Shown in pieces: positions 36,067 through 60,776 of a stretch of DNA of 64,000 nt (position 1 is its first letter; each line of letters starts with the position of its first letter). The stretch spans positions 6,054 through 70,053 of the forward strand of contig CAMCYG010000003.1 in assembly GCA_945883775.1 (NCBI GenBank), given 5' to 3'. The notes below the pieces were generated by a model. That model was given only the letters and a program-made list of their open reading frames with translations, ran no database searches and had not been told where the DNA came from. Origin of the DNA: Victivallis vadensis (GTDB lineage Bacteria > Verrucomicrobiota > Kiritimatiellia > UBA8416 > CAMCYG01). The translations under genes were made by a program, and so were the position numbers.

Positions 36067-36133
36067 GTAGGGCGAACCCTCCGGGTGAGCCGGTAATTCC
36101 AATTCTACGGCTCGGCCAGAGGCCTCGCCCTAC
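36067..36133. repeat. Inverted REP-like pair, GTAGGGCGA family
   Basis: GTAGGGCGAACCCTCCGGGTGAGCCGG...ACGGCTCGGCCAGAGGCCTCGCCCTAC; the 9-bp termini are exact inverted repeats. A near-copy sits at 47745-47812. Overlaps the TAG stop of the LarA-like gene. Confidence 0.8.
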
Positions 36134-37401
36134 CTAAATCTACTATTGACCGACCATAATCCCAATGCCGGATTGGAGATGTAGAAGATCTCCTCTCCGT
36201 CCTTCATCACATTAAAGCCATCCTTCAGGCGCGTGACATCATACTTCTGCATCATCTGCCCAAGTTCTGCGTGCTTGAAGTTTATCGCCTCTATATCACT
36301 GCGCGAAATGGTGTCAGTACAATATGTGACAGTAAAGCGCCCTTCCGTTGACCCGTGTATCAAATGTGCTGCGGCGCTGAGATTCTGCTTTAAATCATCA
36401 TTATGTTTTACAAGCTCCTGCACCTTGTCGCTGCCTACATAACCGTATTTCCTTATAAGCTTATTGATCTGGGGATCCTCGCCAAACTCCTTCAAGCCAG
36501 GCGCAAGTATGATCAGCTCACCGGCGTCAGCCAGAGCCATCCTGGTTCGATAGATGGCCTTGTTGCCCAGCCACGTGCTCTTAAACTCTGCGGGATCAAG
36601 GTAGACCACGACTTTTTTCAGCGGCTTTTCCAGCATCTGGAAATTCACCTTGAGCGAAAGGTCCGCCGCCTTTCTGAAACATTCGTCATCATTTCCGATA
36701 TACAGACCCCTGACGACCAGCCGACCGTCTTCGCCTCGCCCGACAACCGTCTGAACATACACTACAGGCATATCAGGCGCTATCTTTGTCGATGCATAAT
36801 TGAGCACTTTCCGTACAGGCGTGTCCACCCTGCCCATTATCCGCTCCATGCCGTAAACGGCTCCAAGATAATGACTTTTGCTGATACCTTCCGCCCCGCC
36901 AACTCCTACGAATATGTTTTTGTTATGGTTTGCCATGCCAATGACTTCGTGCGGCACCACCTGTCCAATTGACAGGATCAAATCTACGTTGTCATTCACC
37001 AGCATCTTATTTACCTGCGCCGGCCACGGATAATCCAGCCGACCTTCAGAGACTTCGCGCACATATTCGCCAGGCACCTGACCGAGCGTAACAAGATCTT
37101 TTCTAAAGTCATGGACACGGAACAGCGAACGGGGAACATCCGGAAACATGCTCGCAATCTCAACGTCCGACATCGCATAATGAGTACCAAGCGCAGGCAT
37201 CACCGCATATGTCTTTTCACGATAATACTCATAGGCATATTTTGTGAGCTCACCGGCACGTGAATGATACCTTGTCTGGTCCGGCGGAAGCAGAAGGACC
37301 TTTCGCCTATCGCCGACAGTTTTCAATGCACAACAGAGACACTCCTTGAGCTCTTGCGAGGAGAGATCTGCCGATTCACTGCCCTTTTCGAAGTACATCA
37401 T
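36130..37401 (-). CDS. LarA-family (nickel-pincer nucleotide dependent) 2-hydroxyacid racemase/epimerase homologue, DUF2088
   Basis: 423 aa with DQTR(41-44), GTH74, PH151, K161 and H177. The spacings match the LarA catalytic His, cofactor Lys and Ni His (see findings). Confidence 0.7.
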   Translation of the reverse strand: MMYFEKGSESADLSSQELKECLCCALKTVGDRRKVLLLPPDQTRYHSRAGELTKYAYEYYREKTYAVMPALGTHYAMSDVEIASMFPDVPRSLFRVHDFRKDLVTLGQVPGEYVREVSEGRLDYPWPAQVNKMLVNDNVDLILSIGQVVPHEVIGMANHNKNIFVGVGGAEGISKSHYLGAVYGMERIMGRVDTPVRKVLNYASTKIAPDMPVVYVQTVVGRGEDGRLVVRGLYIGNDDECFRKAADLSLKVNFQMLEKPLKKVVVYLDPAEFKSTWLGNKAIYRTRMALADAGELIILAPGLKEFGEDPQINKLIRKYGYVGSDKVQELVKHNDDLKQNLSAAAHLIHGSTEGRFTVTYCTDTISRSDIEAINFKHAELGQMMQKYDVTRLKDGFNVMKDGEEIFYISNPALGLWSVNSRFR

Positions 37402-37402
37402 A

Positions 37403-38290
37403 TCAGCACCACGGTGGATTCTCTGGCAGAAAAGTCTTGAATTCTTTAATCAGCGCGGCCTCGTATGCGCCGCTATAAGTACCCGCAAAGAATTTATCCA
37501 GCGCCTCGCCGTGGAACCTCTGCCACGACTCATCCTCTCGACCGGGATTCACCGGGAAGAACAGCACCCCATTCGCTGTTGCAGCACTCAGATCACCAAT
37601 CGCGTCTCCGACCATCAGTATTTTTTTCGCATCATACTTTCCAACAGCACCAAACTTCAAATGCTCGGTCTTTGTGCCATACTCCTGACCTGCAATCAGG
37701 CGAGTAAACTTCTTAATGTCGTGCTCTTCCCACTCCCTGTTGAGTGCGGCGCCAGGCGTCTGCGAAACGACCATAATGTCGGCCGTAGGCTTCATTTTCT
37801 CCAACGACTCCTGCACATAAGGGAAAGGCGGGATCCCAGACACCATATCCTCTATGTCCTCGTTAATCGCCTCCGACCATGCCAGCGTCCTGTAAACAAT
37901 GTCATTTTGGACAACATCTGCATATTTCTCCAAAGTCGGATTCCCGAGCTTCGTTTCCTTTTTCGTCCACTCCACAATCTGCGGGATCTCAATAATCTGG
38001 GCCTTACGAGCCTTGACCTCGCGGCGCTCCCTAAGCAAGTCCAGCACCTTGATCAAAGCAATGAATCTATTACAGCCGCGCGTTGTCGAATAGAGATTTA
38101 CAAAATCCCACGCCTCGCGCGCATACTTTGACACCTTCTGCAAATCAAAATACTTGATAGTATTGGGACAGAAGCACTCCTTGTGCTTGATCTCCATCGT
38201 ATCAAACGCACAGCCGTCAGAATCTATTCCAATGAAAAACTCTTTCGCCGGCTTGATATCCGTCAACTCCTTGTGTGGGTCTTTACTCAT
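37403..38290 (-). CDS. HAD-superfamily hydrolase (probable sugar-phosphate phosphatase)
   Basis: Motif I IDSDGC and motif IV GDAIGD. ATG at 38290 has AGGAGA 7 nt upstream; the longer ORF reaches 38320. Confidence 0.75.
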   Translation of the reverse strand: MSKDPHKELTDIKPAKEFFIGIDSDGCAFDTMEIKHKECFCPNTIKYFDLQKVSKYAREAWDFVNLYSTTRGCNRFIALIKVLDLLRERREVKARKAQIIEIPQIVEWTKKETKLGNPTLEKYADVVQNDIVYRTLAWSEAINEDIEDMVSGIPPFPYVQESLEKMKPTADIMVVSQTPGAALNREWEEHDIKKFTRLIAGQEYGTKTEHLKFGAVGKYDAKKILMVGDAIGDLSAATANGVLFFPVNPGREDESWQRFHGEALDKFFAGTYSGAYEAALIKEFKTFLPENPPWC

Positions 38291-38334
38291 TAATCTTTCT
38301 CCTGATTCGACATTCTTCATTTTGATTGCAAATT

Positions 38335-38389
38335 GCGCTCATAGAGCGCTGCTACATCTTTTCTTAATGTAGCACCCATCTGCGATGGG
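38335..38389. repeat. Inverted pair of GTAG-headed REP-like hairpins
   Basis: GCGCTC-ata-GAGCGC-TGCTACAT cttttctta ATGTAGCA-CCCATC-tgc-GATGGG. Confidence 0.85.
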
Positions 38390-38393
38390 CTCT

Positions 38394-38442
38394 CCTGAAT
38401 TCTGTATTCAGTTCGACTGTCTACTGTTCACCGTCTACCGCC
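38394..38442. repeat. Degenerate heptanucleotide tandem array (7 units)
   Basis: CCTGAAT TCTGTAT TCAGTTC GACTGTC TACTGTT CACCGTC TACCGCC. Runs into the pfk-family stop codon. Confidence 0.6.
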
Positions 38443-39734
38443 TACTTCTTCTTGTACGCTTCAGGCATATATTCCGGCAACTTCTTCTTGGCGAATATCT
38501 CCTTGAACTGCGAAAAACGCTGGCGACCATTGATAATGGGCACCGAAACCCAGTCCTCACCGATCAGCGGCCTGGCGTAGTCCACAAAATCATCCGTCAC
38601 ATCGACCTTGCTCTTCGAAATCCATTCCGCCGGGAAGAAGCGCTCTGACAATGCCACTTTCTCCAACGGCACCTTGCCGTACCTGACATTGTAAATAAAA
38701 CCAGGCTCTCTGAGTATCGTCGCCATCCAGCCATTCCCGTCTTTGACTGCTACTTCCACAGCTTTCTGGCCCACCTTGTAAGCTTCCTCAAGATCAACTG
38801 TTGATGCAAATATAATCGAATGACGCTGGTCCGTCCCCGGCACTTGGCCTCTGGCGCTGCCCTGCGCTTTGATACCCTTCTCATTAAGATAGTTCACGAC
38901 CGCCTGATAAGCAGAGATCTTACTGGCACCGAATTCGACATGACCGAACGAATCACGCACTTCGCCAATGCTTCCGACATCGAAACCCTCACTGACCACA
39001 ACTATACAGCGATGATCCTTCGACAGCTGATCATTCACCTTGTCAAGCATCTCAGGCATGGACAACTTTGACTCCGTCATATAGATCTGAAGCGGCATCG
39101 TCCTGTCCGGATCAGCAAGCCTGGCAGCGGCTGGTATATACCCGATTTTCCTGCCCATCGCCTGAAGTACAAGTACAGGATCCGCCGGGTACGACCCCAT
39201 GTTTTCCTCATTAGCCGCCTGAACCACGTGTGACCAGTATTTTGCCACACTTCCGTAACCGGGTGTGTGGTCAATCAATGTACGTTCGCTGTCGCCAAGG
39301 TCATTGTCGATGGTTTTGGGCACACCTGTCGCAACGACATCAATTCCCTTATCCTTACACAGCTGGCTGACTTTGTAGGCGGTATGCTGCGAGTCGTTAC
39401 CGCCAATATAGAAGAAATAGCCGATATTATGAGCTTTGAACACCTCTGCTATGCGATCGAAATCTTTCAACTGCTTATCTTTGAGCTTGTAGCGGCAAGT
39501 TCCGATACTGCCTGCGGCAGGCGTAGTACGCAAAAGAGATATCTCCTCCCGATCCTGAGACGACAGATCCAGAAGATCTTCTTTTAGAACTCCCTCTATA
39601 CCATGCCAGCCACCATAGACTGTGCCGAATTTATCAGGAAACATCCGACATGCCTCGATAATCCCACGCAACGAATTATTGATTACCGGCGACGGCCCAC
39701 CCGACTGCGCTATCAATACATTCTTCTTCGCCAT
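38442..39734 (-). CDS. Phosphofructokinase-family enzyme, probably PPi-dependent
   Basis: 430 aa with GGNDS and PKTIDNDL motifs. Lys in PKTIDND is the PPi-type signature. Strong AGAGGAGA RBS. Confidence 0.8.
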   Translation of the reverse strand: MAKKNVLIAQSGGPSPVINNSLRGIIEACRMFPDKFGTVYGGWHGIEGVLKEDLLDLSSQDREEISLLRTTPAAGSIGTCRYKLKDKQLKDFDRIAEVFKAHNIGYFFYIGGNDSQHTAYKVSQLCKDKGIDVVATGVPKTIDNDLGDSERTLIDHTPGYGSVAKYWSHVVQAANEENMGSYPADPVLVLQAMGRKIGYIPAAARLADPDRTMPLQIYMTESKLSMPEMLDKVNDQLSKDHRCIVVVSEGFDVGSIGEVRDSFGHVEFGASKISAYQAVVNYLNEKGIKAQGSARGQVPGTDQRHSIIFASTVDLEEAYKVGQKAVEVAVKDGNGWMATILREPGFIYNVRYGKVPLEKVALSERFFPAEWISKSKVDVTDDFVDYARPLIGEDWVSVPIINGRQRFSQFKEIFAKKKLPEYMPEAYKKK

Positions 39735-39769
39735 ACCATCTCCTCTTATGATTAAGTAAATAATATTAT

Positions 39770-39854
39770 CCCACAGATTAACACAGATAAAGAATGATAT
39801 TTCTGTCTTCCGCTCTTGGCGGAATTATCTTATCCATCTGTGTTTATCTGTGGG
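39770..39854. repeat. 85-bp imperfect palindrome with CACAGAT words
   Basis: CCCACAGATTAACACAGAT ... ATCTGTGTTTATCTGTGGG (one mismatch in 19 bp), with central hairpin TCCGC-tcttg-GCGGA. Confidence 0.75.
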
Positions 39855-39886
39855 CAATTTCTTCTTTATTCTTCAACATCAACAAC

Positions 39887-40738
39887 TTAAACACCCGAAT
39901 ACGCGCTGAAACCTCCGTCAACAGGGATAATAACGCCTGTTATGAATTTGGAAAGGTCAGAAGTCAGAAAAAGCGCAGTTCCCACCAGATCAGCCGGCTC
40001 ACCGAATTTACCCATCGGAGTCCCGTTTATGATCTTATTGCCGCGAGGTGTCAGCTGGCCGGTCTTCTCATCAGTCAACAGGAAACGGTTCTGATTAGTC
40101 ACAAAAAAGCCAGGCGCCACAGCGTTGACGCGCACATTGACCTTTGCCATATGCACCGCCAGCCACTGCGTAAAGTTGTTTATCGACGCCTTGGCAGCGG
40201 AATAAGCAGGAATTTTTGTCAAAGGACGGAAAGAATTCATCGAAGATATATTTAGTATTGCACCGCCGGATGCGTTGACCATATCTCTGGAGAAGACCAT
40301 GGTCGGCAGGATCGTCCCCTTAAAATTAAGATCAAATATCTTATCAAACCCTTCCAGCTCCAATCCAAAGAAAGTACCGGCAAGTTCACCAAGATCACCC
40401 TTTTCAATAAACTCTTTAGCCGTAGTTGCTTTTGGCGAATTGCCTCCGGCGCAATTGATCAGAATATCAATCATACCCAGACGACTTTTAATTTCTTCGT
40501 TTGCCTTTCCAAGCGAGACTTTATCAAGAACATTTGCCTGGATCCCGATAACTGCATTCTTCGTCCTGCCTGCGATATCGGCCGCGACTTTGTCGGCTGC
40601 TTCCTTGCTCAGATCGGCAATAGCCACCTTGCAACCTGCCGCCGAATAACCTTCCGCGAGAGTTGCTCCTATAACGCCCGCTCCTCCGGTTATCACACAA
40701 ACCTTACCCTTCATGCCTGAGAAATCATATTTGACCAT
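39887..40738 (-). CDS. SDR oxidoreductase, UxuB/YjmF-type (fructuronate reductase / D-mannonate oxidoreductase-like)
   Basis: 283 aa from ATG at 40738; the longest ORF adds 21 aa. TGGAGVIG, SSMNSFRPLTKIPAYSAAKA and C-terminal VDGGFSAYSGV, typical of this SDR subfamily. Confidence 0.75.
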   Translation of the reverse strand: MVKYDFSGMKGKVCVITGGAGVIGATLAEGYSAAGCKVAIADLSKEAADKVAADIAGRTKNAVIGIQANVLDKVSLGKANEEIKSRLGMIDILINCAGGNSPKATTAKEFIEKGDLGELAGTFFGLELEGFDKIFDLNFKGTILPTMVFSRDMVNASGGAILNISSMNSFRPLTKIPAYSAAKASINNFTQWLAVHMAKVNVRVNAVAPGFFVTNQNRFLLTDEKTGQLTPRGNKIINGTPMGKFGEPADLVGTALFLTSDLSKFITGVIIPVDGGFSAYSGV

Positions 40739-40993
40739 GGTTAATTCCCTCTTCTTTCTTGTAATTAAATTAACCTTAATAACTAGCCAAAAAGAAATCA
40801 ATAAGAAATTATAAATTTAAATATGACTAGGGATGTAAGACAGATTTGTCGGGTTAGGCCTCAATGAGAAATGGATCTAAAGCTGTAACTCATTAGACCG
40901 CAATCACCTCCCCTGCTATACAGAAAAGGCAAAGACCCGAAAGAGAGATCATTCACGAGCTCAAAGCTATCGAATATCACCCACCGACGCTGA

Positions 40994-41983
40994 TCAACCA
41001 AACGCTTCGTCGAATACCCTGTCAGACTTCTTGAAATCAAGAGCCTTGACGAAACGGCAGGCTTCTTCAGCACCGTGCTCACGGTCCATCATCGCATCTT
41101 CCCACTCAACCGACAAGGGCCCAGCGTAGTTGATGACATTAAGCTGACGCATGATCTCCTCGAACTTCACGCCGCCGCGGCCAAGGCTTCTAAAATCCCA
41201 ACCTCTGCCGGGCGTACCGAAGTTCAGGTGCGACGACAGTATCCCGCTCTCGCCATCGAGAGTCACTGCCGCATCCTTCATATGGACATGATATATCCTA
41301 TCCGGAAACGCTTTGATGAACTTGACAGGGTCGACCATCTGCCAGTGCAAATGGCTGGGGTCGAAGTTGAAGCCGAACGTCTTCCTGTCCTTCACTGCTC
41401 TCAGAGCCCGTCTGGCGGTAATGATATCGAAAGCTATCTCGGTAGGATGGACTTCCAGTGCGAATTTTACGCCGCATTTATCGAATTCATCCAGTATCGG
41501 GTTCCACATCTTCGCAAAGAACGCGAAACCGTCCTCGACCATCGTGTCACTGACAGGCGGGAAGCTGTAGAGCATATGCCATATCGATGAGCCGGTAAAA
41601 CCATTGACCACCTTGACCCCGATATTCTTCGCAGCCTTGGCTGTATACTTCATCTCCTGGACCGCCCAGGCGCGCTTCTTCTCTGCATTGCCATGACATG
41701 TCTTTGGTGAAAACAGATCTGATCGGGAATCATTATTAGCATCACAAACAAGCTGTCCTGAAAGATGAGCACTTATCGCGTAGCACTCCAGCTTGTAGTC
41801 AGCCAGAAGCTCTTTCCTGCTCTTTGCGTATTTAAGATCCTTGGCCGCTTTTTCGACTTCGACATGATCACCCCAGCAAGCAAGCTCAAGCCCATCATAG
41901 CCCCACGCCTTTGCCTTTTTTGCAAGGTCTTCAAGTTTCAAATCAGCCCACTGCCCAGTGAATAAAGTTACCGGTCTAGCCAT
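40994..41983 (-). CDS. Xylose-isomerase-like TIM-barrel protein (sugar phosphate isomerase/epimerase family)
   Basis: 329 aa; ...WGYDGLELACWGDH... and HVHMKD metal-site context. AGGAGG RBS. Confidence 0.8.
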   Translation of the reverse strand: MARPVTLFTGQWADLKLEDLAKKAKAWGYDGLELACWGDHVEVEKAAKDLKYAKSRKELLADYKLECYAISAHLSGQLVCDANNDSRSDLFSPKTCHGNAEKKRAWAVQEMKYTAKAAKNIGVKVVNGFTGSSIWHMLYSFPPVSDTMVEDGFAFFAKMWNPILDEFDKCGVKFALEVHPTEIAFDIITARRALRAVKDRKTFGFNFDPSHLHWQMVDPVKFIKAFPDRIYHVHMKDAAVTLDGESGILSSHLNFGTPGRGWDFRSLGRGGVKFEEIMRQLNVINYAGPLSVEWEDAMMDREHGAEEACRFVKALDFKKSDRVFDEAFG

Positions 41984-42044
41984 TGTAGTTCCTCCTCTTA
42001 TCTTTGCTTATCCGCATTCATCGGCCATTAAACATTCTTCTCAT

Positions 42045-42067
42045 CCGCTCATAGAGCGGTGCTACAT
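42045..42067. repeat. GTAG-headed REP-like hairpin
   Basis: CCGCTC-ata-GAGCGG-TGCTACAT. Differs from the 38335 copy only by a compensatory G-C to C-G swap of the outer stem pair. Confidence 0.85.
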
Positions 42068-42158
42068 TCTGAATTCTGGATTCTGACTCCTGAATTCTTC
42101 TCTCCTGCCGCTCTTGATTTATTTCTGGTTTCGTATTTCTAGTTTCAGGTTTCTCTTT
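42068..42158. repeat. Degenerate heptanucleotide tandem array (13 units in one phase)
   Basis: TCTGAAT TCTGGAT TCTGACT CCTGAAT TCTTCTC TCCTGCC GCTCTTG ATTTATT TCTGGTT TCGTATT TCTAGTT TCAGGTT TCTCTTT. Confidence 0.8.
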
Positions 42159-43317
42159 ACATCTTCACCCATTTAGCACCGAGCTTGGCAGATTTCACGA
42201 CCGCCTCGATGAACTGCATTCCTCTTAAGCCCGCCTCGACGCCCGGAAAGTCCAGCGCTAGAGGATCAACTTTGGCCCCCTCAAGCTTTGCAATTATTAC
42301 ATCAGCGAAGTTTGAATAATTGTTTGCAAATGCCTCAAAGAACGCTTCAGGATGACCGAACGGCAGTCTCGAATTGCGCGCGGCGGCTTTGCTCTTCTCG
42401 CCGACGTAAGCATTGCCGCGCTTCCAGATCTGCGTCGGGCCGTTTATTACATTGACGGACAGATAGTTCGGATTTTCCTGATGCCACTCAAGGCTCTTTT
42501 CCATGCCGTACACCCAGATTGCAAGATTGTTCTCCTCACCAATGGAAACCTGACTGGCATGAAGAACACCTCTTGCTCCGTTATCAAAACGAAGCAGGCA
42601 GTTGCCGTCATCCTCAAGCCTGCGACCCTGCACGAAGGTCGTAAGGTCGGCACATATCTCCTTTACCTTCAGCCCTGAGATATATTCCGCAAGGTTCTCC
42701 GCGTGCGTACCTATATCACCCATACAGCCTGCAGCACCGCTCTGCTTAGGATCGGTCCGCCATGAAGCCTGCTGAGAGCCTTCTCGCTCTATGGGCTTGA
42801 TCAGCCAGCCTTGCGGATATTGCACAACGATCTTAATGATCTTGCCCAAGTCGCCCTGCTTAACCATATCGCGCGCAAGCTTCACCATCGGATAACCGGT
42901 ATAGTTGTGCATCAGACCGAACACCTTGCCGGATTTCTTTACGATCTTCTCCAGAGATTTGGCCTCTTTCACGTCCATAGTCATCGGCTTCTCGCACATT
43001 ACATTAAAGCCGGCCTCAAGGAATGCCGCCGCTATGGGATAATGCCAGTTATTAGGAGTAGTGACCGACACGAAATCAACCCTCTCCCCGACAGGCAGTT
43101 TCTTCTCCTCCTGGATCATCGTTTTGTAATCAGAGTAAGTGCGGGCAGGACTAATGCACAGCTCACGACCCATCTGCATACTCTTCTCAGGATTGATATC
43201 AAATGCTCCGGCCACGATATCAATCTTGCCATCCAGCCGCGCAGCCCTGCGGTGAACTTCTCCGATAAACGCACCCGGCCCGCCGCCAACCATTCCCATC
43301 TTGAGTTTTCTTTTCAC
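42157..43317 (-). CDS. Gfo/Idh/MocA-family NAD(P)-dependent oxidoreductase (cytoplasmic)
   Basis: GTG start at 43317, 5 nt after AAGGAGG; the longest ORF to 43410 would overlap the MFS gene. VKRKLKMGMVGGGPGAFIG... and CEKP motif. Confidence 0.8.
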   Translation of the reverse strand: MKRKLKMGMVGGGPGAFIGEVHRRAARLDGKIDIVAGAFDINPEKSMQMGRELCISPARTYSDYKTMIQEEKKLPVGERVDFVSVTTPNNWHYPIAAAFLEAGFNVMCEKPMTMDVKEAKSLEKIVKKSGKVFGLMHNYTGYPMVKLARDMVKQGDLGKIIKIVVQYPQGWLIKPIEREGSQQASWRTDPKQSGAAGCMGDIGTHAENLAEYISGLKVKEICADLTTFVQGRRLEDDGNCLLRFDNGARGVLHASQVSIGEENNLAIWVYGMEKSLEWHQENPNYLSVNVINGPTQIWKRGNAYVGEKSKAAARNSRLPFGHPEAFFEAFANNYSNFADVIIAKLEGAKVDPLALDFPGVEAGLRGMQFIEAVVKSAKLGAKWVKM

Positions 43318-43339
43318 AAATGCCTCCTTGAGATAGTAA

Positions 43340-44842: not shown

Positions 44843-45032
44843 ACTACCTCCTGTTGTTTTTAATCTGCTTTCCCTCACATCTGCAACAAATGCACTTTGA
44901 TTTCTACCCCAAAGATTAATCCTAAGCAATGCTGAAGAACGAGCCACCAACTCTTAATGTTAGAGACGGTACATAAAACATCTAATCTTGTCTTGTATTT
45001 ATACTGCAATTTCTTGTACTATTTCGGCGCTG

Positions 45033-45746: not shown

Positions 45747-45857
45747 GGAATTGCAAAGGATTTACAATTCCTCCAGCGGAACGTATGAACGTTCCGATGC
45801 CTCGGGGCTGACAATATCGGAATTGCTTCTTCCTATAGTCGGCAGTTGAACTGCCGA
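45747..45857. repeat. Three consecutive hairpins downstream of the AraC gene
   Basis: GGAATTG-11 nt-CAATTCC; CGGAACGT-atga-ACGTTCCG; CTATAG-TCGGCAGT-tga-ACTGCCGA. The GGAACG stem recurs at 54767. Confidence 0.7.
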
Positions 45858-45901
45858 TGAACCAAAACGGCAACCGTCTGGCACAACATTATAAAGGCGC
45901 A

Positions 45902-46531: not shown

Positions 46532-46557
46532 ACTATTTTTCCTTACTATTTTTCTTA

Positions 46558-46589
46558 ATGTAGCGGGCAGAAAATAGACTTTCTGCCGC
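46558..46589. repeat. GTAG-headed REP-like hairpin
   Basis: ATGTAGC-GGGCAGAAA-atagac-TTTCTGCC. The leading TTTCTTAATGTAGC is identical to the 14 nt ending at 38373 (38360-38373). Confidence 0.8.
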
Positions 46590-47744: not shown

Positions 47745-47812
47745 CCGGCTCACCCAGAGGGTTCGCCCTACCTTTCAGGAATTGGGTAGGGCGAGGCGTC
47801 CCTGCCGAGCCG
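47745..47812. repeat. Inverted REP-like pair, GTAGGGCGA family
   Basis: CCGGCTCACCCAGAGGGTTCGCCCTAC ctttcaggaattgg GTAGGGCGAGGCGTCCCTGCCGAGCCG. Halves are near-identical to those at 36067-36133 but in permuted order. Confidence 0.8.
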
Positions 47813-49176: not shown

Positions 49177-49218
49177 GGTACATATTCCCTTAGGTTAGGA
49201 ATTATGGGAGGAGAATAT

Positions 49219-51206: not shown

Positions 51207-51216
51207 ATTTTTTCCT

Positions 51217-51300
51217 TATCATCTACCATCTGCATTTTGTAATCTGTGATCTATGTTCTGTAATCTGAGCTTTGTAATCTGTGATTTGTAATCTATTTGA
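51217..51300. repeat. Degenerate heptanucleotide tandem array (12 units in one phase)
   Basis: TATCATC TACCATC TGCATTT TGTAATC TGTGATC TATGTTC TGTAATC TGAGCTT TGTAATC TGTGATT TGTAATC TATTTGA. Fills most of the gap between the two dehydrogenase genes (51217 onward) and runs 8 nt into the SDR coding end. Confidence 0.85.
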
Positions 51301-52375: not shown

Positions 52376-52392
52376 ATTTTCCTCCAAATCCA

Positions 52393-52466
52393 GCGCATGA
52401 CACTGCGCCGCTTCAACAAATCAATTCTCATTCTGAATTCTGACTACTGAATCCTGAATTCTTACC
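52393..52466. repeat. Degenerate REP hairpin plus heptanucleotide array
   Basis: CAGCGCATGACAC-TGCGCCGCTTCA is a decayed copy of CAGCGCATGACACATGCGCTGCTACAT at 53919. It is followed by TTCTCAT TCTGAAT TCTGACT ACTGAAT CCTGAAT TCTTACC. Confidence 0.75.
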
Positions 52467-53850: not shown

Positions 53851-53887
53851 TTCAATTCCTCCTGTCTGTTTCCGCATATACTCATCA

Positions 53888-53945
53888 CTGCAGCTGAGCA
53901 TGCGTCATGCTCATTTTTCAGCGCATGACACATGCGCTGCTACAT
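53888..53945. repeat. Inverted pair of REP-like hairpins
   Basis: CTGCAGC-TGAGCATG-cgt-CATGCTCA tttttc AGCGCATG-aca-CATGCGCT-GCTACAT. Ends at the lipB stop codon. Confidence 0.85.
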
Positions 53946-54586
53946 CAAGAAACCAAATTATACCCGAACAATCTCACAAAATTATTAATCACCCGTTTTT
54001 TGACCTCGTTCATCTCCACATCTTCGACATGCAGATGCAGAGAGGTCACGCCCTTGTCCTTAATCCCGCATGGAATTATTCCACCATAATCCGAAAGCCT
54101 CACCCTGACATTCAGAGAGAACCCATGCATCGTTACATGACCTGCTATCTTGACCCCTATCGCGGCGATTTTGTCGTCACCGATCCACACGCCGCGATTC
54201 TGCCTGTCGCCGCGCGACTTGACACCATACTGCGCCAGCGTATCTACAATGATCTTCTCCAGCATATCCACGTACCAGACGACCTTGCGCGAATCGCTTC
54301 CCAGATCGATAATCGGGTAGCCTACCAGCTGGCCCGGCCCATGATATGTCACATCCCCACCGCGTGTGGTTTGAAAAACCTTTATCCCCTTTTTCTCCAG
54401 ATCCGCAGGCGCAAGCAGGAGATTCTCCTCCTTGGCACTCCTGCCCAGCGTATAGACCGGCTCATGCTCCAGCAGGAGGAGCGTGTCACCTATACTGCCA
54501 GCTTTTCGCTCCTTTACCATCGCCTCCTGAAGCGAAAGCGCCTGCTCATATGCCACTAACCCGAGGTCTTTGACGGTCAATATCAT
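53945..54586 (-). CDS. lipB: Octanoyltransferase (lipoyl(octanoyl) transferase)
   Basis: 213 aa with RGGDVTYHGPGQLVGYPI, AAIGVK and PCGI motifs. Confidence 0.9.
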   Translation of the reverse strand: MILTVKDLGLVAYEQALSLQEAMVKERKAGSIGDTLLLLEHEPVYTLGRSAKEENLLLAPADLEKKGIKVFQTTRGGDVTYHGPGQLVGYPIIDLGSDSRKVVWYVDMLEKIIVDTLAQYGVKSRGDRQNRGVWIGDDKIAAIGVKIAGHVTMHGFSLNVRVRLSDYGGIIPCGIKDKGVTSLHLHVEDVEMNEVKKRVINNFVRLFGYNLVS

Positions 54587-54592
54587 ACTGAA

Positions 54593-54627
54593 GAATCACA
54601 TATCACAGATCACAAACACAGATTTTG
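54593..54627. repeat. Degenerate heptanucleotide array abutting the lipB start
   Basis: GAATCAC ATATCAC AGATCAC AAACACA GATTTTG. Confidence 0.65.
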
Positions 54628-54666
54628 AACCATGCCGATAAACTAAATCCATAATTTCTTTTCTTA

Positions 54667-54732
54667 CTGTAGGAGTCGATCCCCTGATCGACGATTCTTT
54701 CCCATCGCCGATCAGGGGATCGGCTCCTACAG
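54667..54732. repeat. 66-nt near-perfect palindrome (CTGTAGGAG-headed REP pair)
   Basis: CTGTAGGAGTCGATCCCCTGATCGACGAT tctttccc ATCGCCGATCAGGGGATCGGCTCCTACAG. 29-bp stem with 2 mismatches; each arm also contains its own CGATC..GATCG hairpin. Confidence 0.85.
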
Positions 54733-54748
54733 AAGGAAGAAACGCCAG

Positions 54749-54784
54749 CGCTCCATCTTCTGGAGCGGAACGGCTACCCGTTCC
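54749..54784. repeat. Two adjacent hairpins downstream of the E2 gene
   Basis: CGCTCCA-tcttc-TGGAGCG and GGAACGG-ctac-CCGTTCC. Confidence 0.7.
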
Positions 54785-54810
54785 GTCGTAGCCTTCCCTC
54801 AAGTATTTAA

Positions 54811-56151
54811 TTACGCCAGACTCTTCCAGAGTCCGACATTCTCAAGCTTTTTCTTGATCGCGTTAACAAATGTTGCGCCAAGTGCGCCGTCCACAATCCT
54901 GTGGTCGCACGACAGCGAGATCTTCATCATGTTCCTGACACAGATCTTGCCATTCTTGACTACGGCCGTCTCCCTGGTGCTTGCCACCGCCAGGATAGCA
55001 CCCTCGCCAGGATTGATGATCGCATGGAACTCTTCCACATCCAGCATGCCCATATTGGAAACTGTGAACGAACTGCCGCTCATCTCATCAGGAAGAAGTT
55101 TACCTTCTCTTGCCCTCATGGCCATCGCCTTGGCAGTTTCGCTAAGCTCTTTCAGTGACATGTCCTGCGCATCTTTGATGCACGGCACGACCAGCCCTTC
55201 ATCAAGGCTGACCGCCAGTCCGAGATTCACTCCACTGCGCCACGACACACTCAAGCCGTCGGTAGTACTGTTGACTGCCGGGAATTCCTGCAAGGACATC
55301 ACGACTGCCTCAAGAATGAAGTCGGTAATTGTATATTTCTTACCTGCGTCTTTCAGTTCCTGCCTGAACACCATGAGATCGGTCATATCGACCGATACCG
55401 TCACATAGAAGTGCGGGATCATCATGAAGCTCTCTGTGAGGCGCTTTGCGATGATCTGTCTCATCTTGCTCATCTTCTTCGGTTTCTCGGCTATAGCGCG
55501 CTTGATGTCTTCAGTCCTGATCCTGCCGCCTTCGCCCAGGCCTTTGACTGTAAGTATGTCAATACCCTCGGCCTGAGCCATCTGCTTCGCAGTGGGCGTA
55601 ATCTTGAGATTCGCATAACCGCGTCCGTCCAGATAGGCTTTGACATCAGCCTCGACTATCCTGCCACCGGGTCCACTACCCTTGATGTTGACAGCGCTCA
55701 CTGCGCTGTTCTTCACCAGGACCTTGGCTCGCGGAGATATGAATAATCTCCCGGGCTGAGCAGCCACTGCCGGCTCGGCCGGCTTCGGCATCTGTACGGC
55801 AGGGACATCGGCTCGCGGCTGTGCCGGGGCAACTGATGCAGCAGCCGCAGTGGCTGCTGCCGGCGCGGGAGCCGCCGCCTTTGGCGGTGGCGGAGCATCA
55901 GGCGCCTTCTCTCCCTTATCACCTACATATCCCACAACGGTATTAACCGGAACAGTTACGTTCTCAGCTACCACAACCTTTATCAGAATCCCCTCAAAGA
56001 AACTTTCCACCTCAAGTACTGACTTGTCCGTCTCGATCTCGAACAGGATGTCACCCTTCTTAACGACATCCCCTTCCTTCTTGTGCCATTTGACAATCGA
56101 GGATTCCTCGACGGTCTGTCCGAACTTCGGCATTATTACTGCTTGTGCCAT
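54811..56151 (-). CDS. Dihydrolipoamide acyltransferase (E2) with one lipoyl domain and two peripheral-subunit-binding domains
   Basis: Lipoyl-Lys context EIETDKSV, Pro/Ala linker, two PSBD-like segments (ISPRAKVL...GSGPGGRI and ITPTAKQM...GLGEGGRI), and catalytic SCDHRIVDGA. Confidence 0.9.
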   Translation of the reverse strand: MAQAVIMPKFGQTVEESSIVKWHKKEGDVVKKGDILFEIETDKSVLEVESFFEGILIKVVVAENVTVPVNTVVGYVGDKGEKAPDAPPPPKAAAPAPAAATAAAASVAPAQPRADVPAVQMPKPAEPAVAAQPGRLFISPRAKVLVKNSAVSAVNIKGSGPGGRIVEADVKAYLDGRGYANLKITPTAKQMAQAEGIDILTVKGLGEGGRIRTEDIKRAIAEKPKKMSKMRQIIAKRLTESFMMIPHFYVTVSVDMTDLMVFRQELKDAGKKYTITDFILEAVVMSLQEFPAVNSTTDGLSVSWRSGVNLGLAVSLDEGLVVPCIKDAQDMSLKELSETAKAMAMRAREGKLLPDEMSGSSFTVSNMGMLDVEEFHAIINPGEGAILAVASTRETAVVKNGKICVRNMMKISLSCDHRIVDGALGATFVNAIKKKLENVGLWKSLA

Positions 56152-56175
56152 TGTTAGATCCTCCAGGCCTTCGAG

Positions 56176-58467
56176 TTACATTACCTTCAATGCGGTGTTC
56201 ATTATGTCTTTAGCGTTAGGCAGAAATGCCAGCTCAAGCGGCAGCGACTGCGGTGCGATACCGTTTTTCGCACCAAGCCTCAGCACAGGTGCGTCGAGAT
56301 AATCAAACGCCTGTTCCATTATCTGAGACGCAACCTCGCCGGTAAAACTACCCATGCTTATGCACTGGCTTACCACCACGCACTTGCCGGTCTTCTTGAT
56401 CGACTTGATGACAGTTTCCATGTCCAGCGGAACGATTGAGCGCAGGTCGATAACTTCCACACTGATCTTTTTCTCAGCCGCCAGCATTTCAGCCGCCTTG
56501 AGCGAATCATGGACTGACGGACCCCATGTGACAATCGTCAGGTCCTTGCCCTCTCTCTTCACATCAGCTACGCCTAGCGGAATCATGTAGTCGCCCTCAG
56601 GCACAACACCCTTGATCCCGTACAGAAGCTGAGACTCTACGAACATGATGGGGTTATTATCCCTTATGCATGTTGTGAGCAATCCCTTGGCATCAGCCGG
56701 GGTCGAAGGATATATGATATACATGCCCGGGAACCCGGCAAACATGCTCTCGATCGACTGCGAATGCTGTCCGCCATAGCCCTTACCGCCGCCGACTGAA
56801 GCACGTATCACCAGAGGCACCTCAGCCTTGGCGCCCGACATATAATGCCACTTGGCTGCCTGATTTGCGATCTGGTCCGACGCCATCAGCGCGAAGTCCA
56901 TATACATCAGCTCGACAATAGGACGAAGCCCCGTCATCGCCGCTCCGACCGCGGTTCCGCAGATGCATGCCTCCGATATCGGAGAATTGAACACGCGATC
57001 CCTTCCGAATGCTTCAAGCAGGTCCTTGGTTACCTTGAACGCTCCGCCGTAATCGGCAACATCTTCTCCGTAGAATATTACCCTGTTATCACGGATCATT
57101 TCCTGAACAAGTGTTTCCTTAATGGCATCTTTATAAGTAAGCTGTCCATCCTTACGCTTGATCTCAGGCACAGGCTTGATAATCTTGACCTTGCTATACT
57201 TCTCCGGAACAACATCGCATGCCGTGTTAGTATTAGTGTACCTGATAACATCCGCCGCTACCGGATCGGCTGATGCCGCGGCTGCAGCGGCGGCCCTTGC
57301 GTTCCTATCGACAACCCGCTTCTTCAATTCTTCAAGCGTCTTCTTGTTCAGCACGCCTGCGTCAAGAATCTGCTTTTCATAAGCATCGATAGCATCCACA
57401 CACCGCCACTGCGACTCTTCTTCCTTCGTCCTGTACTCATTACGAGGATCGCTAAGCGAATGTCCGTAATATCTGTAAGTATCAAACTCGAGCAGGTATG
57501 GTCCGTCGCCCTTGCGGCAGCCTTCGGATGCGCGCTTGAACGCATCACGCACAGCCATCACGTCCATACCGTTGATTACTTCAGCATGCATCATGTTCTC
57601 CGCAAAACCTGCGGCGCGCTTTGCAAGACACTCGACCCCGCTGACCTCATCATCAACCCTGCCGGTCATGCCATAGTGGTTGTTGATAATAGCGAATATT
57701 ATCGGAAGCCCACCCTTCTTATCCTTCGAAAGATAGTTGCTGAACTGACCCATTGCAGCCCAATTCAAAGACTCAAGGACTACGCCGTTAGCATAGGCGC
57801 CATCACCTGCGAAGCAGCAGGTGACCTTGCCATCCTGCAGATAGCGCGAAGTCATTGCCGCACCTGTGGCAATCGGCACGCCGCCACCGACGATAGCGTT
57901 AGCACCGAGGTGACCGACAGTGAAGTCGGCAATGTGCATTCCACCCCCGCGCCCTTTGCAGTAGCCATCTTCCTTGCCGAACAATTCAGCGCATGTCCTG
58001 TAGATATGATCTTCCAGCGCCGCTTCGACAAGCACCTTGATGTCCTTGGAATTGCAGTTCGGCACCCGCTTCTGGAGCCTCTCAACGCTCATGGCCCTGA
58101 TGGCAACACAGCCCTTGGCTATGCTGTCGCCATGGCCGCGGTGAGTGGATGTGATCTGGTCATCGGCCTTCATGCCGATACAGGCTCCAACAGAAGTGGC
58201 TTCCTGGCCGACCGAAAGATGCGTCGGGCCGCGATATTCGAAATTCTTTACCGACTCGTAAGCGCCGGACCTTATCTTAACAATCATCTCCTCGGCCTCG
58301 CGGATCATAAGCATGTCTTCAAGAATATCAACTGCCTCCTGCTTGGTTATTGTTCCGGCCTTCACCTCGTCTTTCAGTGTCTTGTCATACGCGAATTCTT
58401 TGATCGTCCCGAACTTGACGACCTTCGACTTGAACTCCGGCTTCCTGTTGCTCAGGTAATTTGGCAT
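56176..58467 (-). CDS. Fused E1 alpha-beta thiamine-diphosphate dehydrogenase component (acetoin/pyruvate dehydrogenase type)
   Basis: 763 aa. Alpha part has STHRGHGD, CKGRGGGMHIAD and GDGAYANG...NN (TPP motif). An Ala-rich linker joins a transketolase-like beta part. Confidence 0.88.
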   Translation of the reverse strand: MPNYLSNRKPEFKSKVVKFGTIKEFAYDKTLKDEVKAGTITKQEAVDILEDMLMIREAEEMIVKIRSGAYESVKNFEYRGPTHLSVGQEATSVGACIGMKADDQITSTHRGHGDSIAKGCVAIRAMSVERLQKRVPNCNSKDIKVLVEAALEDHIYRTCAELFGKEDGYCKGRGGGMHIADFTVGHLGANAIVGGGVPIATGAAMTSRYLQDGKVTCCFAGDGAYANGVVLESLNWAAMGQFSNYLSKDKKGGLPIIFAIINNHYGMTGRVDDEVSGVECLAKRAAGFAENMMHAEVINGMDVMAVRDAFKRASEGCRKGDGPYLLEFDTYRYYGHSLSDPRNEYRTKEEESQWRCVDAIDAYEKQILDAGVLNKKTLEELKKRVVDRNARAAAAAAASADPVAADVIRYTNTNTACDVVPEKYSKVKIIKPVPEIKRKDGQLTYKDAIKETLVQEMIRDNRVIFYGEDVADYGGAFKVTKDLLEAFGRDRVFNSPISEACICGTAVGAAMTGLRPIVELMYMDFALMASDQIANQAAKWHYMSGAKAEVPLVIRASVGGGKGYGGQHSQSIESMFAGFPGMYIIYPSTPADAKGLLTTCIRDNNPIMFVESQLLYGIKGVVPEGDYMIPLGVADVKREGKDLTIVTWGPSVHDSLKAAEMLAAEKKISVEVIDLRSIVPLDMETVIKSIKKTGKCVVVSQCISMGSFTGEVASQIMEQAFDYLDAPVLRLGAKNGIAPQSLPLELAFLPNAKDIMNTALKVM

Positions 58468-58488
58468 ATCATCCGTCCTTTCTTTATT

Positions 58489-59262
58489 CTAATACAAAAC
58501 TTCGACATTCTTCTTTTTCATTTCTTTTACAAATTCAGGGCTGACGCCCTGATCTGTCACTATCACATCGACATCATTCACCGTACCGAACTTGGCGAAC
58601 GATGCAAAACCAACCTTTGAGCTGTCAACCAGAAGAACGACCCTGGCGGCACGGCCTATAACGGCTTCTTTTGTATGCGCCTCAGCAGGATCGGTAGTTG
58701 TCAGCTCATCCCCCACCAGGCCGCTGGTACCCATGAAGGCTATATCGAAATTAACATGATTGATTATATGATCGGTAAGCGAGCCGACGAATGTCTGGCT
58801 GATCTTCCGGAACTCTCCGCCGGTTAGGATCACGCGCGGCCCGTTCTCGGCATACAAATTCGCCACATGCAGGGAATTAGTGACGATAGTCAGCCTGTTA
58901 TGGCTGCCAAGCAGTTTGGCAAAGGCGAAAAGCGTGCTTCCGCCATCTATATAAATGGACGACGATGATTTCACGAAAGACAGTGCTAGCTCGGCTATCT
59001 TCTGTTTCTGTTTGGCAGCCTTGGCGGTCTTGTCATCAAAGCCTGGCTCATCGAAATTGGTGTCAACCGCCATGGCACCGCCATGAACCCTGCGGACCAT
59101 TCCCTTTTCATCAAGCTCAGCCAGATCACGGCGTATTGTTGCAGGCGAAACAGAGAGTTCATTACAGAGCTTTTCGACACTGATAAAGCCGCTCTGCTTG
59201 AGGATTTCCCTAATCTTCTTTTGCCTTTCCACCGCAAGACCCGTGTTTAGCTCTATGCTCAT
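58489..59262 (-). CDS. DeoR-family transcriptional regulator
   Basis: 257 aa; N-terminal HTH (...LSVSPATIRRDLAELDEKG) and a DeoR C-terminal sugar-phosphate sensor domain. Confidence 0.88.
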   Translation of the reverse strand: MSIELNTGLAVERQKKIREILKQSGFISVEKLCNELSVSPATIRRDLAELDEKGMVRRVHGGAMAVDTNFDEPGFDDKTAKAAKQKQKIAELALSFVKSSSSIYIDGGSTLFAFAKLLGSHNRLTIVTNSLHVANLYAENGPRVILTGGEFRKISQTFVGSLTDHIINHVNFDIAFMGTSGLVGDELTTTDPAEAHTKEAVIGRAARVVLLVDSSKVGFASFAKFGTVNDVDVIVTDQGVSPEFVKEMKKKNVEVLY

Positions 59263-59353
59263 ATGTGATTACTTATGATTAGATACAATCAGATGTAATC
59301 ATAATGAATCACACAAGACAAGAAGAATTTTGCGTATTTTTTCATGGATTTCT

Positions 59354-59388
59354 TGTCGGACTAGTCTGACATGTCGGACCGGTCTGAC
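59354..59388. promoter_or_regulatory. Tandem pair of 17-nt near-palindromic boxes (candidate operator or structural repeat)
   Basis: TGTCGGACTAGTCTGAC a TGTCGGACCGGTCTGAC, between the GHMP-kinase stop and the deoR-family start. Confidence 0.4.
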
Positions 59389-59394
59389 TGGCTA

Positions 59395-60633
59395 TCAGCA
59401 GCCAGGCAATACTTTCACGCCATCGACGACCTTGCAGACGTGGACTGCGTATTTGTCGGCAAATGCGGGCCTGCTCCTGGGATACGCACTATTAACGGCT
59501 TCCCTCACAGCTTTTACCGAATTAGCAGCAACGATGGCACCGGCTGCTCCTTTGTCGCCGCCGCCGAGCATACGCTCACCGTATACGCCTGGCACGGTCC
59601 TGACTATATCGCACATTGTCTCAAGTTCCGGGCCGGAGATTTTGTATTCATCGCGAAGGCCGACACCATCTGCACGGAATATGGAACCTACCTTCTCTAT
59701 TTTGCCGGCTTTCCAGGCTTCCATCATCTCATAAAACCGCTTCTGGGCCTTAAATATGTAAGTCAGCCTGTCGCAAAGATCAGGCTGACGCCGCTGAAAC
59801 CTGTCAATTATCGACTTGTACTGCTTATCGGTCTTAACATCGGCAAGGCATTTTATCCCAAACTCGGCTCCGGCCAGTTCCGCCATCTTCTCGCACTCTG
59901 CCCTGCGGACTTTGTAGGATGATTTTTCAAGACCAGGGCGGACTGTTCCGGTGTCAAGGCTTACGATCCTGAAATCGGACGCACCCTTGCCAAGAGAGAC
60001 ATACTTTATTGTACGCTTCGAAGGGCTGTAATGTGTACCCATCCCAGCCTTTGCAAAATATATCATTATCTGGTCGAGTTTGCCGCAGGGCGATCCCACA
60101 TAATCATTCTCCACTGCCTGAGACATGTCGACAATTTTCATGCCGTCCTTGATACTGATGCCATTTACTTCAAGCGTGGTCAGCATTAGATTTATGCAAA
60201 GCGAAGCCGAGCGCGACATTCCGCCGCCGGGTATATTACCAATCAGGACTGCGTCAAAACCTCTGGTCAATTTGTATCCAGCCTTCCTGAGCACATAATC
60301 CACTCCATAGGCATAGCGCGCCCAGGTATCTGCAATCGCGGCTGATTTAGGGGCTGGCGTCTGACCGGACTTGAATTCGATCACACCATCGGACTCGAAG
60401 TTGCCAGAGAAGAGACGGATCTTGCCAAGCGCATTGGGTTTATATGCCAGCCAGATGAATCTATCGGTACCAACGCCGAACAGTTCGGTTCCGTTATAAT
60501 CGCCATGCTCAACGCCCAGACAGAAACGTGACGAAGTCCTGCGCATCTTCCCGCCTTTGATGTCCAACTTGGCTGTCTTCGCAAGTCTGATTATTTCCTT
60601 ACGCGCACTGGCATCATCAACTATTTTATTCAT
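59395..60633 (-). CDS. GHMP-family sugar kinase, galactokinase-like
   Basis: ATG at 60633 after AAGGAG. GVEHGDYNG (GalK signature-like), PGGGMSRSAS (GHMP motif II) and GGGDKGA. Confidence 0.8.
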   Translation of the reverse strand: MNKIVDDASARKEIIRLAKTAKLDIKGGKMRRTSSRFCLGVEHGDYNGTELFGVGTDRFIWLAYKPNALGKIRLFSGNFESDGVIEFKSGQTPAPKSAAIADTWARYAYGVDYVLRKAGYKLTRGFDAVLIGNIPGGGMSRSASLCINLMLTTLEVNGISIKDGMKIVDMSQAVENDYVGSPCGKLDQIMIYFAKAGMGTHYSPSKRTIKYVSLGKGASDFRIVSLDTGTVRPGLEKSSYKVRRAECEKMAELAGAEFGIKCLADVKTDKQYKSIIDRFQRRQPDLCDRLTYIFKAQKRFYEMMEAWKAGKIEKVGSIFRADGVGLRDEYKISGPELETMCDIVRTVPGVYGERMLGGGDKGAAGAIVAANSVKAVREAVNSAYPRSRPAFADKYAVHVCKVVDGVKVLPGC

Positions 60634-60659
60634 ATCGGCTCCTTCGTATCTGCTCATTC

Positions 60660-60683
60660 GGCGCGGTAAGCCGCGCCGCTTCG
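60660..60683. repeat. REP-like hairpin, variant tail
   Basis: GGCGCGG-taag-CCGCGCC-GCTTCGA. Confidence 0.65.
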
Positions 60684-60704
60684 AACAGGAAATTATATTC
60701 CTCG

Positions 60705-60776
60705 CTGTAGCTGCGCATGTGTCATGCGCAGGTCTTCAGTCTTCTCCGCCGGCGCTTGACACAAGCGCCGCTACAT
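60705..60776. repeat. Inverted pair of GTAG-headed REP-like hairpins
   Basis: CTGTAGC-TGCGCATG-tgt-CATGCGCA ...19 nt... GGCGCTTG-aca-CAAGCGCC-GCTACAT. Confidence 0.85.

Follow-up and report, generated by a model that had tools for sequence, protein, structure and literature searches.

GTAG-headed hairpin families, probably of the REP class, in an uncultured bacterium of the Verrucomicrobia/Lentisphaerae/Kiritimatiellia group

Introduction

Repetitive extragenic palindromes (REPs) with a GTAG head are a described class of bacterial repeats, and here we analyze hairpins of this build in a 64,000-nucleotide (nt) stretch of DNA, hereafter the window, which spans C3:6054-70053 of a draft genome (G000; 2.66 Mb, 182 contigs, 49% GC, 89% complete) of an uncultured bacterium in the Verrucomicrobia/Lentisphaerae/Kiritimatiellia group. 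The GTAG REPs of Di Nocera, De Gregorio & Rocco 2013 (BMC Genomics 14:522) form sub-families with complementary stems, occur as head-to-head or tail-to-tail (HH/TT) homo- or heterodimers, and are present as multiple families per genome (PMC3733652); inverted REP dimers are also named REPINs (Bertels & Rainey 2011, PMC3116915). The 2013 study also defined REPtrons and TIRtrons/TIRYT (motif GGGGWSAS), and made GTAG REPs known in two bacteria of the Planctomycetes-Verrucomicrobia-Chlamydiae (PVC) group, Opitutus terrae and Rhodopirellula baltica (PMC3733652). The 23-nt REP of Stenotrophomonas maltophilia consists of GTAG, a perfect stem of 8 bp and a loop of 3 nt; cleavage depends on GTAG, and the enzyme also needs one particular loop base and perfect pairing in the stem but accepts complementary stem swaps (PMC8266576). 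Bulged REPs of the Escherichia coli type and perfect REPs of the S. maltophilia type are the substrates of two groups of REP-associated tyrosine transposases (RAYTs; Corneloup 2021, PMC8266576).

At least seven families of GTAG-headed hairpins (F1 to F7) are co-resident in this genome, in about 400-450 copies, and we are confident, short of certainty, that they are GTAG-class REPs arranged mostly as inverted dimers (REPINs, similar to bacterial interspersed mosaic elements, BIMEs). An earlier note on the window had suggested this identity from the 5' GTAG beside a palindrome, and it has agreed with every sequence-level test that we ran.

Results

GTAG and hairpins are enriched together outside genes

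The bare 7-mer MTGTAGC is no commoner in the window than chance predicts (14 seen vs 12.7 expected), so the hairpin must be part of any motif count. We therefore worked from a genome-wide set of perfect hairpins (n=3729; stem ≥6 bp, loop 3-7), among which GTAG was the most enriched 4-mer located 0-2 nt 5' of the hairpin (273 vs 40.6 expected, 6.7-fold). Counted from the head, and with Watson-Crick stems, a hairpin follows 4.1% of all GTAG occurrences vs 0.9-1.2% for eight control tetramers of comparable composition, among them the complement CTAC; the control TAGG, which overlaps GTAGG heads, was followed by a hairpin in 2.0%. Watson-Crick stems of ≥6 bp superseded a permissive finder (G-T pairs, 5-bp stems) that was noisy, with 11% of any tetramer scoring, and a table of flanks around hairpin cores replaced a head-swap control with two mismatches that was uninformative.

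Genes were approximated as long open reading frames (ORFs), with no gene finder, and 282 of the 395 GTAG-hairpin calls fell in the 11.4% of the genome outside these ORFs. The other 113 occur at the control background rate, and this leaves ~290 real GTAG hairpins, to which ~140 further F6 units are added that the stem filter misses on account of their short bulged stems. Inside the gaps we observed no strong preference for a position, and convergent, tandem and divergent gaps all hold copies, likewise with no strong preference. These families also supply the most frequent 10- and 12-mers of the genome: GGTAGGGCGA (136 copies, the top 10-mer, contained in F6), CGCCGCTACA (83), GCGCATGACA (77), GATCAGGGGATC (43) and ACCGGGACTACA (38). 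Together, the ~430 units account for most over-represented oligomers and for many of the longer intergenic gaps, and they probably explain part of the fragmentation of the assembly into 182 contigs.

A chance or compositional artefact would be in keeping with the chance level of the bare 7-mer. It is refuted by the joint enrichment of head and hairpin, by the concentration in non-coding DNA and by the zero count of a reversed F1 pattern (below), and we assign it a negligible probability. The genome-wide count of head plus hairpin was a check that the earlier note had proposed, with a frequency no higher than composition predicts as the outcome that would speak against it; the frequency found lies well above that expectation.

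Families keep head and loop as stems covary

The hairpins group into the following families, given with their head-stem-loop patterns and copy numbers in the genome.

F1: TGTAGC-N-GNGCWTG-tgt, about 78-94 copies
F2: ATGTAGY-NCCGGTG-tct, about 52-60 copies
F3: TGTAGGA-GYCGATC-ccct, about 79 copies
F4: ATGTAGCA-SCGCTC-tat (GTAGCA-SCGCTC-tat-GAGCGS), 12 copies
F5: ATGTAGCA-CCCATC-tat, 7 copies
F6: GGTAGGGC-GA-N4-TCY-N4-GA-GCCG, about 136-186 copies
F7: GTAG-GGGCGYTG-ctngy, about 37 copies, for example GTAG-GGGCGTTG-cttg-CGACGCCC at C1:19227-19251

The head of F1 is one-sided. In 90 of 94 F1 hairpin cores TGTAGC stands on the side where the loop reads TGT, the opposite flank being different and G-rich, and the F1 pattern occurs 71 times in the genome vs 0 when reversed. 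Copies in the window read TGTAGC-N-GCGC(A/T)TG-tgt-CA(T/A)GCGC-N, head first. For the covariation test we used head and loop as the sole anchors and left the stem free. Under the anchor TGTAGC-N8-TGT-N8, 78 of 90 F1 candidates pair at ≥6 of 8 positions, and the bases exchanged are exchanged in pairs: pair 1 is G-C in 44, T-A in 27, A-T in 6 and C-G in 1, pair 3 is C-G in 60 and A-T in 16, and pair 6 is A-T in 50 and T-A in 25, with nearly no unpaired cells at any of them. Stems of F2, F3 and F7 covary like those of F1 under the same anchoring. Stem position 7 of F7 (a family with no copies in the window) is T·G in 35 of 37 copies, which pairs on the GTAG strand (or its RNA) alone, so it is that one strand that folds. 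The paired stem substitutions with kept head and loop that the earlier note had seen in the window are thus borne out genome-wide. Its further claim, that selection preserves the hairpin, fits the copy number, extragenic location, one-sided head and covariation, and also the dimers and the lack of U-tracts described below.

Inverted dimers have fixed spacings

In paired F1 copies, facing heads (GTAG inside) lie 23 nt apart and outward-pointing heads 54-60 or ~93 nt apart, and the head spacing in doublets is 61 nt for F3 (12 pairs) and 60 nt for F2. These spacing peaks were kept from searches with short patterns allowing one mismatch; the totals from those searches were discarded, as they over-count F1 (204) and F2 (100), with ~100 chance matches expected by our estimate. 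All 20 of 20 F1 dimers are heterodimers of two stem types, typically GGCGCATG with TGAGCTTG, and F4 is usually partnered by F5. Fixed spacings, F1 heterodimers and F4-F5 pairs support the inverted pairing that had been proposed for the window.

The hairpins are rarely followed by T-runs

GC-rich intergenic hairpins could also be ordinary intrinsic terminators, or gene-specific RNA hairpins that are merely alike. A weak orientation bias points in this direction, in that single copies in co-directional gaps have the GTAG strand transcribed in 44 vs 25 cases (P = 0.03). However, TTTT stands within ≤12 nt 3' of the hairpin in only 26 of 282 copies (9%) on the GTAG strand and 20 of 282 (7%) on the other, vs 5% of random intergenic 12-mers, and we rejected intrinsic terminators as the identity of these elements on the basis of these T-run frequencies. 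The F1 3' flank consensus is G-rich, copies are found alike in all three gap types, and near-identical sequences are repeated 10-140 times each, which also argues against terminators or gene-specific hairpins; this explanation is very improbable. The earlier note had named ordinary terminators with U-tracts in most other copies as an outcome against its reading, and U-tracts prove to be near background.

Elements in the window

The earlier note had placed 13 elements in the window. All 13 were found where it located them, all are intergenic, and all fold as single-stranded DNA hairpins with the GTAG(C) head unpaired, with folding z-scores of -1.6 to -4.5 for monomers and -5 to -10.9 for the three doublets (66-68 nt). 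They are listed here by coordinates, strand and type, with the basis for each assignment in brackets.

36067-36133, unstranded: REP doublet (REPIN) of F6, an inverted pair of GGTAGGGC-GA-NNNN-TCY-NNNN-GA-GCCG units whose GTAG ends point outward (z-score -5.8)
38335-38357, minus strand: REP monomer of F4, ATGTAGCA-GCGCTC-tat-GAGCGC (sequence, fold, intergenic position)
38367-38389, plus strand: REP monomer of F5, ATGTAGCA-CCCATC-tgc-GATGGG (sequence, fold, 7 genome copies)
42045-42067, minus strand: REP monomer of F4, ATGTAGCA-CCGCTC-tat-GAGCGG, the most frequent stem type of F4 (sequence, fold)
46558-46589, plus strand: hairpin headed by GTAG, stem of 8 bp (GGCAGAAA), loop of 6 nt (stem seen once in the genome)
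47745-47812, unstranded: REP doublet of F6 with the GTAG ends inside (sequence, fold)
52393-52415, minus strand: probable degenerate F1 copy with head GAAGC and a shortened stem (z-score -1.8; membership by similarity only)
53888-53913, plus strand: F1 copy with mutated head GCAGC, loop cgt and stem TGAGCATG/CATGCTCA (stem type recurs elsewhere)
53919-53945, minus strand: REP monomer of F1, ATGTAGC-AGCGCATG-tgt-CATGCGCT (sequence, family pattern, fold, intergenic position)
54667-54732, unstranded: REP doublet (REPIN) of F3, TGTAGGA-GYCGATC-ccct-GATCGRC-GAT twice, inverted (z-score -10.9)
60660-60683, minus strand: possible degenerate F1-like copy with head GAAGC, stem GGCGCGG and loop ctta (membership uncertain)
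60705-60731, plus strand: REP monomer of F1, CTGTAGC-TGCGCATG-tgt-CATGCGCA (sequence, family pattern, fold)
60750-60776, minus strand: REP monomer of F1, ATGTAGC-GGCGCTTG-tgt-CAAGCGCC (sequence, family pattern, fold)

Ten of these elements had been taken as a single family with an (A/C)TGTAGC head. They belong instead to three families, F1, F4 and F5, plus the singleton at 46558-46589, which has no family elsewhere in the genome and whose head context, cttaATGTAGC, resembles that of F5. The (A/C)TGTAGC head itself holds for most of the ten, but reads GAAG at 52393-52415 and 60660-60683 and GCAG at 53888-53913; all three are plausibly degenerate F1 copies, judging by their sequence. The two further head types that had been set apart are indeed distinct, being F6 at 36067-36133 and 47745-47812 and F3 at 54667-54732, where the two units differ at stem position 2 (a T-A pair in one and C-G in the other).

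Several window copies are paired. The F5 copy at 38367-38389 and the F4 copy at 38335-38357 are separated by 9 nt with their GTAG heads facing, 53888-53913 partners 53919-53945 with tails facing and GTAG ends outside, and 60705-60731 forms a heterodimer with 60750-60776, again with GTAG ends outside, across a 20-nt spacer. The doublet at 47745-47812 lies upstream of the true start (~47726, MKSAVL) of a minus-strand gene, and overlaps only an over-extended ORF. From its N-terminus, we take this gene to resemble a zinc-dependent alcohol dehydrogenase.

Short arrays of the heptamers TCTGAAT/TCTGGAT/CCTGAAT, at 42068-42100, 38390-38412 and 52425-52462, directly adjoin F4-type copies on the side of the GTAG head. 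This arrangement recurs at C62:13943, and TCTGAATTCTG has 16 copies in the genome.

The elements had also been described as confined to the accessory half of the window. This is true within the window, but it is a weak observation since the first 30 kb offers little non-ORF DNA (2462 nt vs 3829 nt in the rest of the window); at genome-wide density ~3 copies would be expected there, which gives P ~0.03-0.04 by hand arithmetic. Absence from the ribosomal block likewise holds, as the sole intergenic candidate in it, 10783-10799, has a 5-bp stem and no family.

A RAYT gene lies between F6-type doublets

As the criterion for a RAYT we used the NCBIfam model NF047646 (REP_Tyr_transpos) with a cut-off of 80 bits, and as the criterion for the Y1 transposase domain we used Pfam PF01797 (Y1_Tnp). 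One canonical RAYT was identified, a 164-aa protein encoded at C69:470-964 that passes the cut-off narrowly (80.9 bits). It contains an HUH motif (PDHIHAI) and a catalytic tyrosine in a Y-x-x-x-N-P context (FYIRQNPV), and its sole match in the PDB is E. coli TnpA-REP (4ER8; E = 2.5e-6, ~25-30% identity over 126 residues). REP doublets flank the gene in mirror order, upstream at C69:283-349 and 381-446 and downstream at 927-993 and 1025-1090, and all four are built GGTAGGGC-N6-TCC-N6-GCC, with the head, loop and tail of F6. An intact RAYT amid hairpins of the same kind is what the earlier note had proposed to look for, and we infer from this arrangement that the C69 RAYT mobilizes F6. The PF01797 search of the genome recovered two genes only, on C67 and C21, both of a longer Y1 type.

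Related REPs and RAYTs in other genomes and in soil

The nearest genomes available for comparison were order-level relatives. Of 64 genomes from the same order, 63 had RAYT-family matches, 33 of them above the cut-off, and in 5 of 12 relatives' loci (L031, L033, L035, L037 and L041) the RAYT match has repeated GTAG hairpin families of its own beside it, which the other 7 do not. The F1 pattern was absent from 30 order-level genomes and from 400 sampled phylum-level genomes.

The exact F1 master sequence had no match in Joint Genome Institute (JGI) metagenomes. A degenerate F1 pattern was found on >120 soil metagenome contigs (~55% GC) that carry TGTAGCGGTGCTTGTGTCAAGCACCG, and the REP of the soil REPtrons described next, TGTAGCGGTGCTTG-tgt-CAAGCACCG, is nearly identical to the F1 sub-type of this genome. 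F1-like dimers flank ~150-aa RAYT genes on both sides in soil contigs L095 (Ga0081539_10000098) and L072 (Ga0307477_10078236), and in L063 (Ga0137408_1210957) an F1-like dimer lies downstream of the RAYT, the upstream flank being a different GTAG hairpin. The only homolog of these soil RAYTs in our genome is the C69 gene, with 32-34% identity.

Weighing the enzymes against the families

The mobility of the REPs may be pictured by analogy with the E. coli, S. maltophilia and Marinomonas systems. A REP unit would fold on single-stranded DNA, and a RAYT (TnpA-REP, an HUH/Y1 nuclease and domesticated transposase) would recognize the unpaired GTAG together with the loop and the shape of the hairpin, and then cut beside the unit, leading to its copying or excision. 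As recognition would depend on head, loop and shape, copies would be expected to retain head and loop and to vary their stems in complementary pairs only.

Some observations weigh against this reading. The stems of the four C69 flanking doublets (GTGCTC, GACTTC, TCGATC) are confined to that locus, so the link between this RAYT and F6 rests on shared architecture and not on identity. No RAYT flanked by F1-F5 or F7 was found in the 89%-complete assembly (NF047646 at E ≤1; PF01797). In addition, the covariation between sub-families may stem from a few amplified founders, in which case independent compensatory events are far fewer than copies.

One alternative is that F1-F5 and F7 are orphans whose own RAYTs were lost, leaving immobile relics that may be retained for a host use such as protection of RNA 3' ends or protein binding. 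This disputes current mobilization and not REP identity. A single canonical RAYT (at E ≤1) and just two longer Y1 genes would be expected of such a genome, as would the mutated heads (GCAG, GAAG) of several window copies; F1-like REPs have a RAYT type of their own in the soil contigs, to which the C69 gene is the only homolog here. In contrast, genes flanked by repeats assemble poorly, and an incomplete assembly in 182 contigs may hide some. Most copies also retain a perfect palindrome and an intact head (90 of 94 in F1), which speaks for recent copying or ongoing selection. We regard orphaned families as a real but minority possibility. A milder alternative, separate from loss, is that the RAYTs for F1-F5 and F7 lie in the unassembled 11% of the genome.

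The C69 RAYT, as the sole RAYT seen in the assembly, could instead serve every GTAG family through the shared head and a generic hairpin. All seven families have the unpaired GTAG, and binding in S. maltophilia tolerates GTAG changes and complementary stem swaps (PMC8266576). However, loop base and stem geometry are specific in the systems tested (PMC8266576), and F6 is bulged and F1-F5 are short and perfect, two architectures that Corneloup 2021 links to two RAYT groups. Genomes with multiple families normally carry one RAYT per REP family. We consider a shared enzyme quite improbable. It is only slightly less doubtful that seven families coexist with possibly one RAYT (either one enzyme copying bulged and perfect REPs, or most families staying near-perfect long after their enzyme was lost) and that F1 is shared with unrelated soil organisms by horizontal REP-RAYT spread or by convergence. 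GTAG-class REPs, with the C69 RAYT as the candidate enzyme for F6, remain the reading that we prefer.

A transposase remnant in the window is of a different type

The window also contains part of a transposase gene, which had been described as a decayed RAYT-like gene.

30237-30566, minus strand: remnant of a Y1 transposase element bounded by terminal inverted repeats (TIRs), i.e. a TIRtron, consisting of ORF 30237-30518 and a decayed left inverted repeat (GGGAGCAGCCTTTGAAACAAGCAATAG, at ~30540-30566)

The ORF is 81% identical to residues 1-64 of a 354-aa protein encoded at C67:41-1105, and stops before the HUH motif. The C67 protein passes Pfam Y1_Tnp and scores 49.7 bits with the RAYT model, below the cut-off of 80; the window remnant by itself gave no match. 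The Y1 genes on C67 and C21 (C21:25713-26613) are bounded by GGGGTCAGCCCTTAA inverted repeats where the copies reach the ends, the right repeat overlapping the stop codon, and these repeats begin GGGGTCAG, which fits the GGGGWSAS motif of TIRtrons. The GGGGTCAGCCCTTAA-type TIR is not amplified, with 3 intact copies in the genome plus the decayed copy in the window. The same TIR motif is found at relatives' Y1 loci in metagenome-assembled genomes of Lentisphaerae, Verrucomicrobia and Kiritimatiellia wherever the contig reaches, and a Nitrosomonas locus (L015) carries the variant GGGGTCAGGCCTTA.

As the full-length paralogs are flanked by GGGGTCAGCCCTTAA repeats and not by GTAG REPs, we rejected the window remnant as the cognate enzyme of the REPs. 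Its description as RAYT-like is fair in so far as it is the N-terminus of a Y1 (HUH) transposase, but it is of the TIRYT type.

Two truncated copies, the one in the window and that at C67:4723-4917 (element C67:4657-4917), break at nearly the same residue, 64-65, before HUH, and what follows the break in one copy is unrelated to what follows it in the other. Another Y1 fragment, more divergent, is C67:2150-2736; it covers residues 100-239 with 40% identity to the C67 protein and is preceded by a long GGTAGGGCGG...CGCCCTGCC palindrome; fragment and palindrome together may be a decayed REPtron of another type. Adjoining the transposase remnant, ORF 30621-31079 on the minus strand has a twin-arginine translocation (TAT)-type signal, MKSSGISRREFLGRG, and stops after 152 aa; it is presumably related to Gfo/Idh/MocA-type oxidoreductases, which it resembles. 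A shortened ORF at this place would fit a limited area of decaying genes where the ribosomal block ends.

A further over-represented motif of the genome, with the consensus cATTTTGTtCATTCTGTCAAAA, is unrelated to the GTAG hairpins. One form of it, ATTCTGTCAAAA, has 41 copies in a conserved context of ~22 nt, and the motif might be a regulatory or promoter-like site.

Discussion

REP-RAYT systems have been studied almost only in Proteobacteria, and this genome, together with the RAYT matches in 63 of the 64 genomes of its order, shows them to be both frequent and varied within this section of the PVC group. Our result extends the published observation in Opitutus and Rhodopirellula and opens no new question.

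In build, the elements are like the GTAG REPs of Di Nocera et al.: units 20-30 nt long that end in an unpaired GTAG, stems of 6-9 bp and loops of 3-4 nt, complementary sub-families, inverted and often heterologous dimers, co-resident families, and a RAYT between doublets. Unlike those REPs, the sequences here are lineage-specific (F1 is absent from the relatives sampled), and the likeness to the 24 consensus families of that study, which include GTAG-17 to GTAG-20 of O. terrae, is drawn at the level of build. One RAYT was seen for the seven families in the draft assembly, which is a further difference.

The closest match for F1-F5 is the SMAG/REP-Sm element of S. maltophilia (Rocco 2010; Nunvar 2010, PMC2817692; PMC8266576), with which they share GTAG, an 8-bp perfect palindrome, a 3-nt loop and a length of 23-27 nt. 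As in REP-Sm, head and loop are kept and stem differences are complementary, and these are the features on which the S. maltophilia enzyme was measured to depend. In S. maltophilia, unlike here, there is a group 3 TnpA-REP to go with them; no group-3-like RAYT flanked by F1-F5 appeared in this assembly, and the elements described here are known from sequence alone.

F6 is more like the REP/BIME elements that E. coli TnpA-REP acts on (YafM; 4ER8; Ton-Hoang 2012, PMC3333891; Messing 2012, PMC3479197), in that its palindrome is interrupted by a GA/GA mismatch. Partners of different type alternate in the dimers of our genome, as the Y and Z REPs do in BIMEs. The C69 RAYT differs from TnpA-REP in its low identity to that enzyme, and the stem and loop sequences of the REPs differ as well.

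The TIRtrons of the 2013 study (PMC3733652) are matched by the C67 and C21 genes and the window remnant, not by the hairpins: it is these genes that have repeats fitting the TIRtron motif and a 3' repeat that overlaps the stop. REPs of this class, their sub-families and dimers, REPtrons and TIRtrons are all already described in the PVC group (PMC3733652), and the elements reported here are new members of these known kinds.

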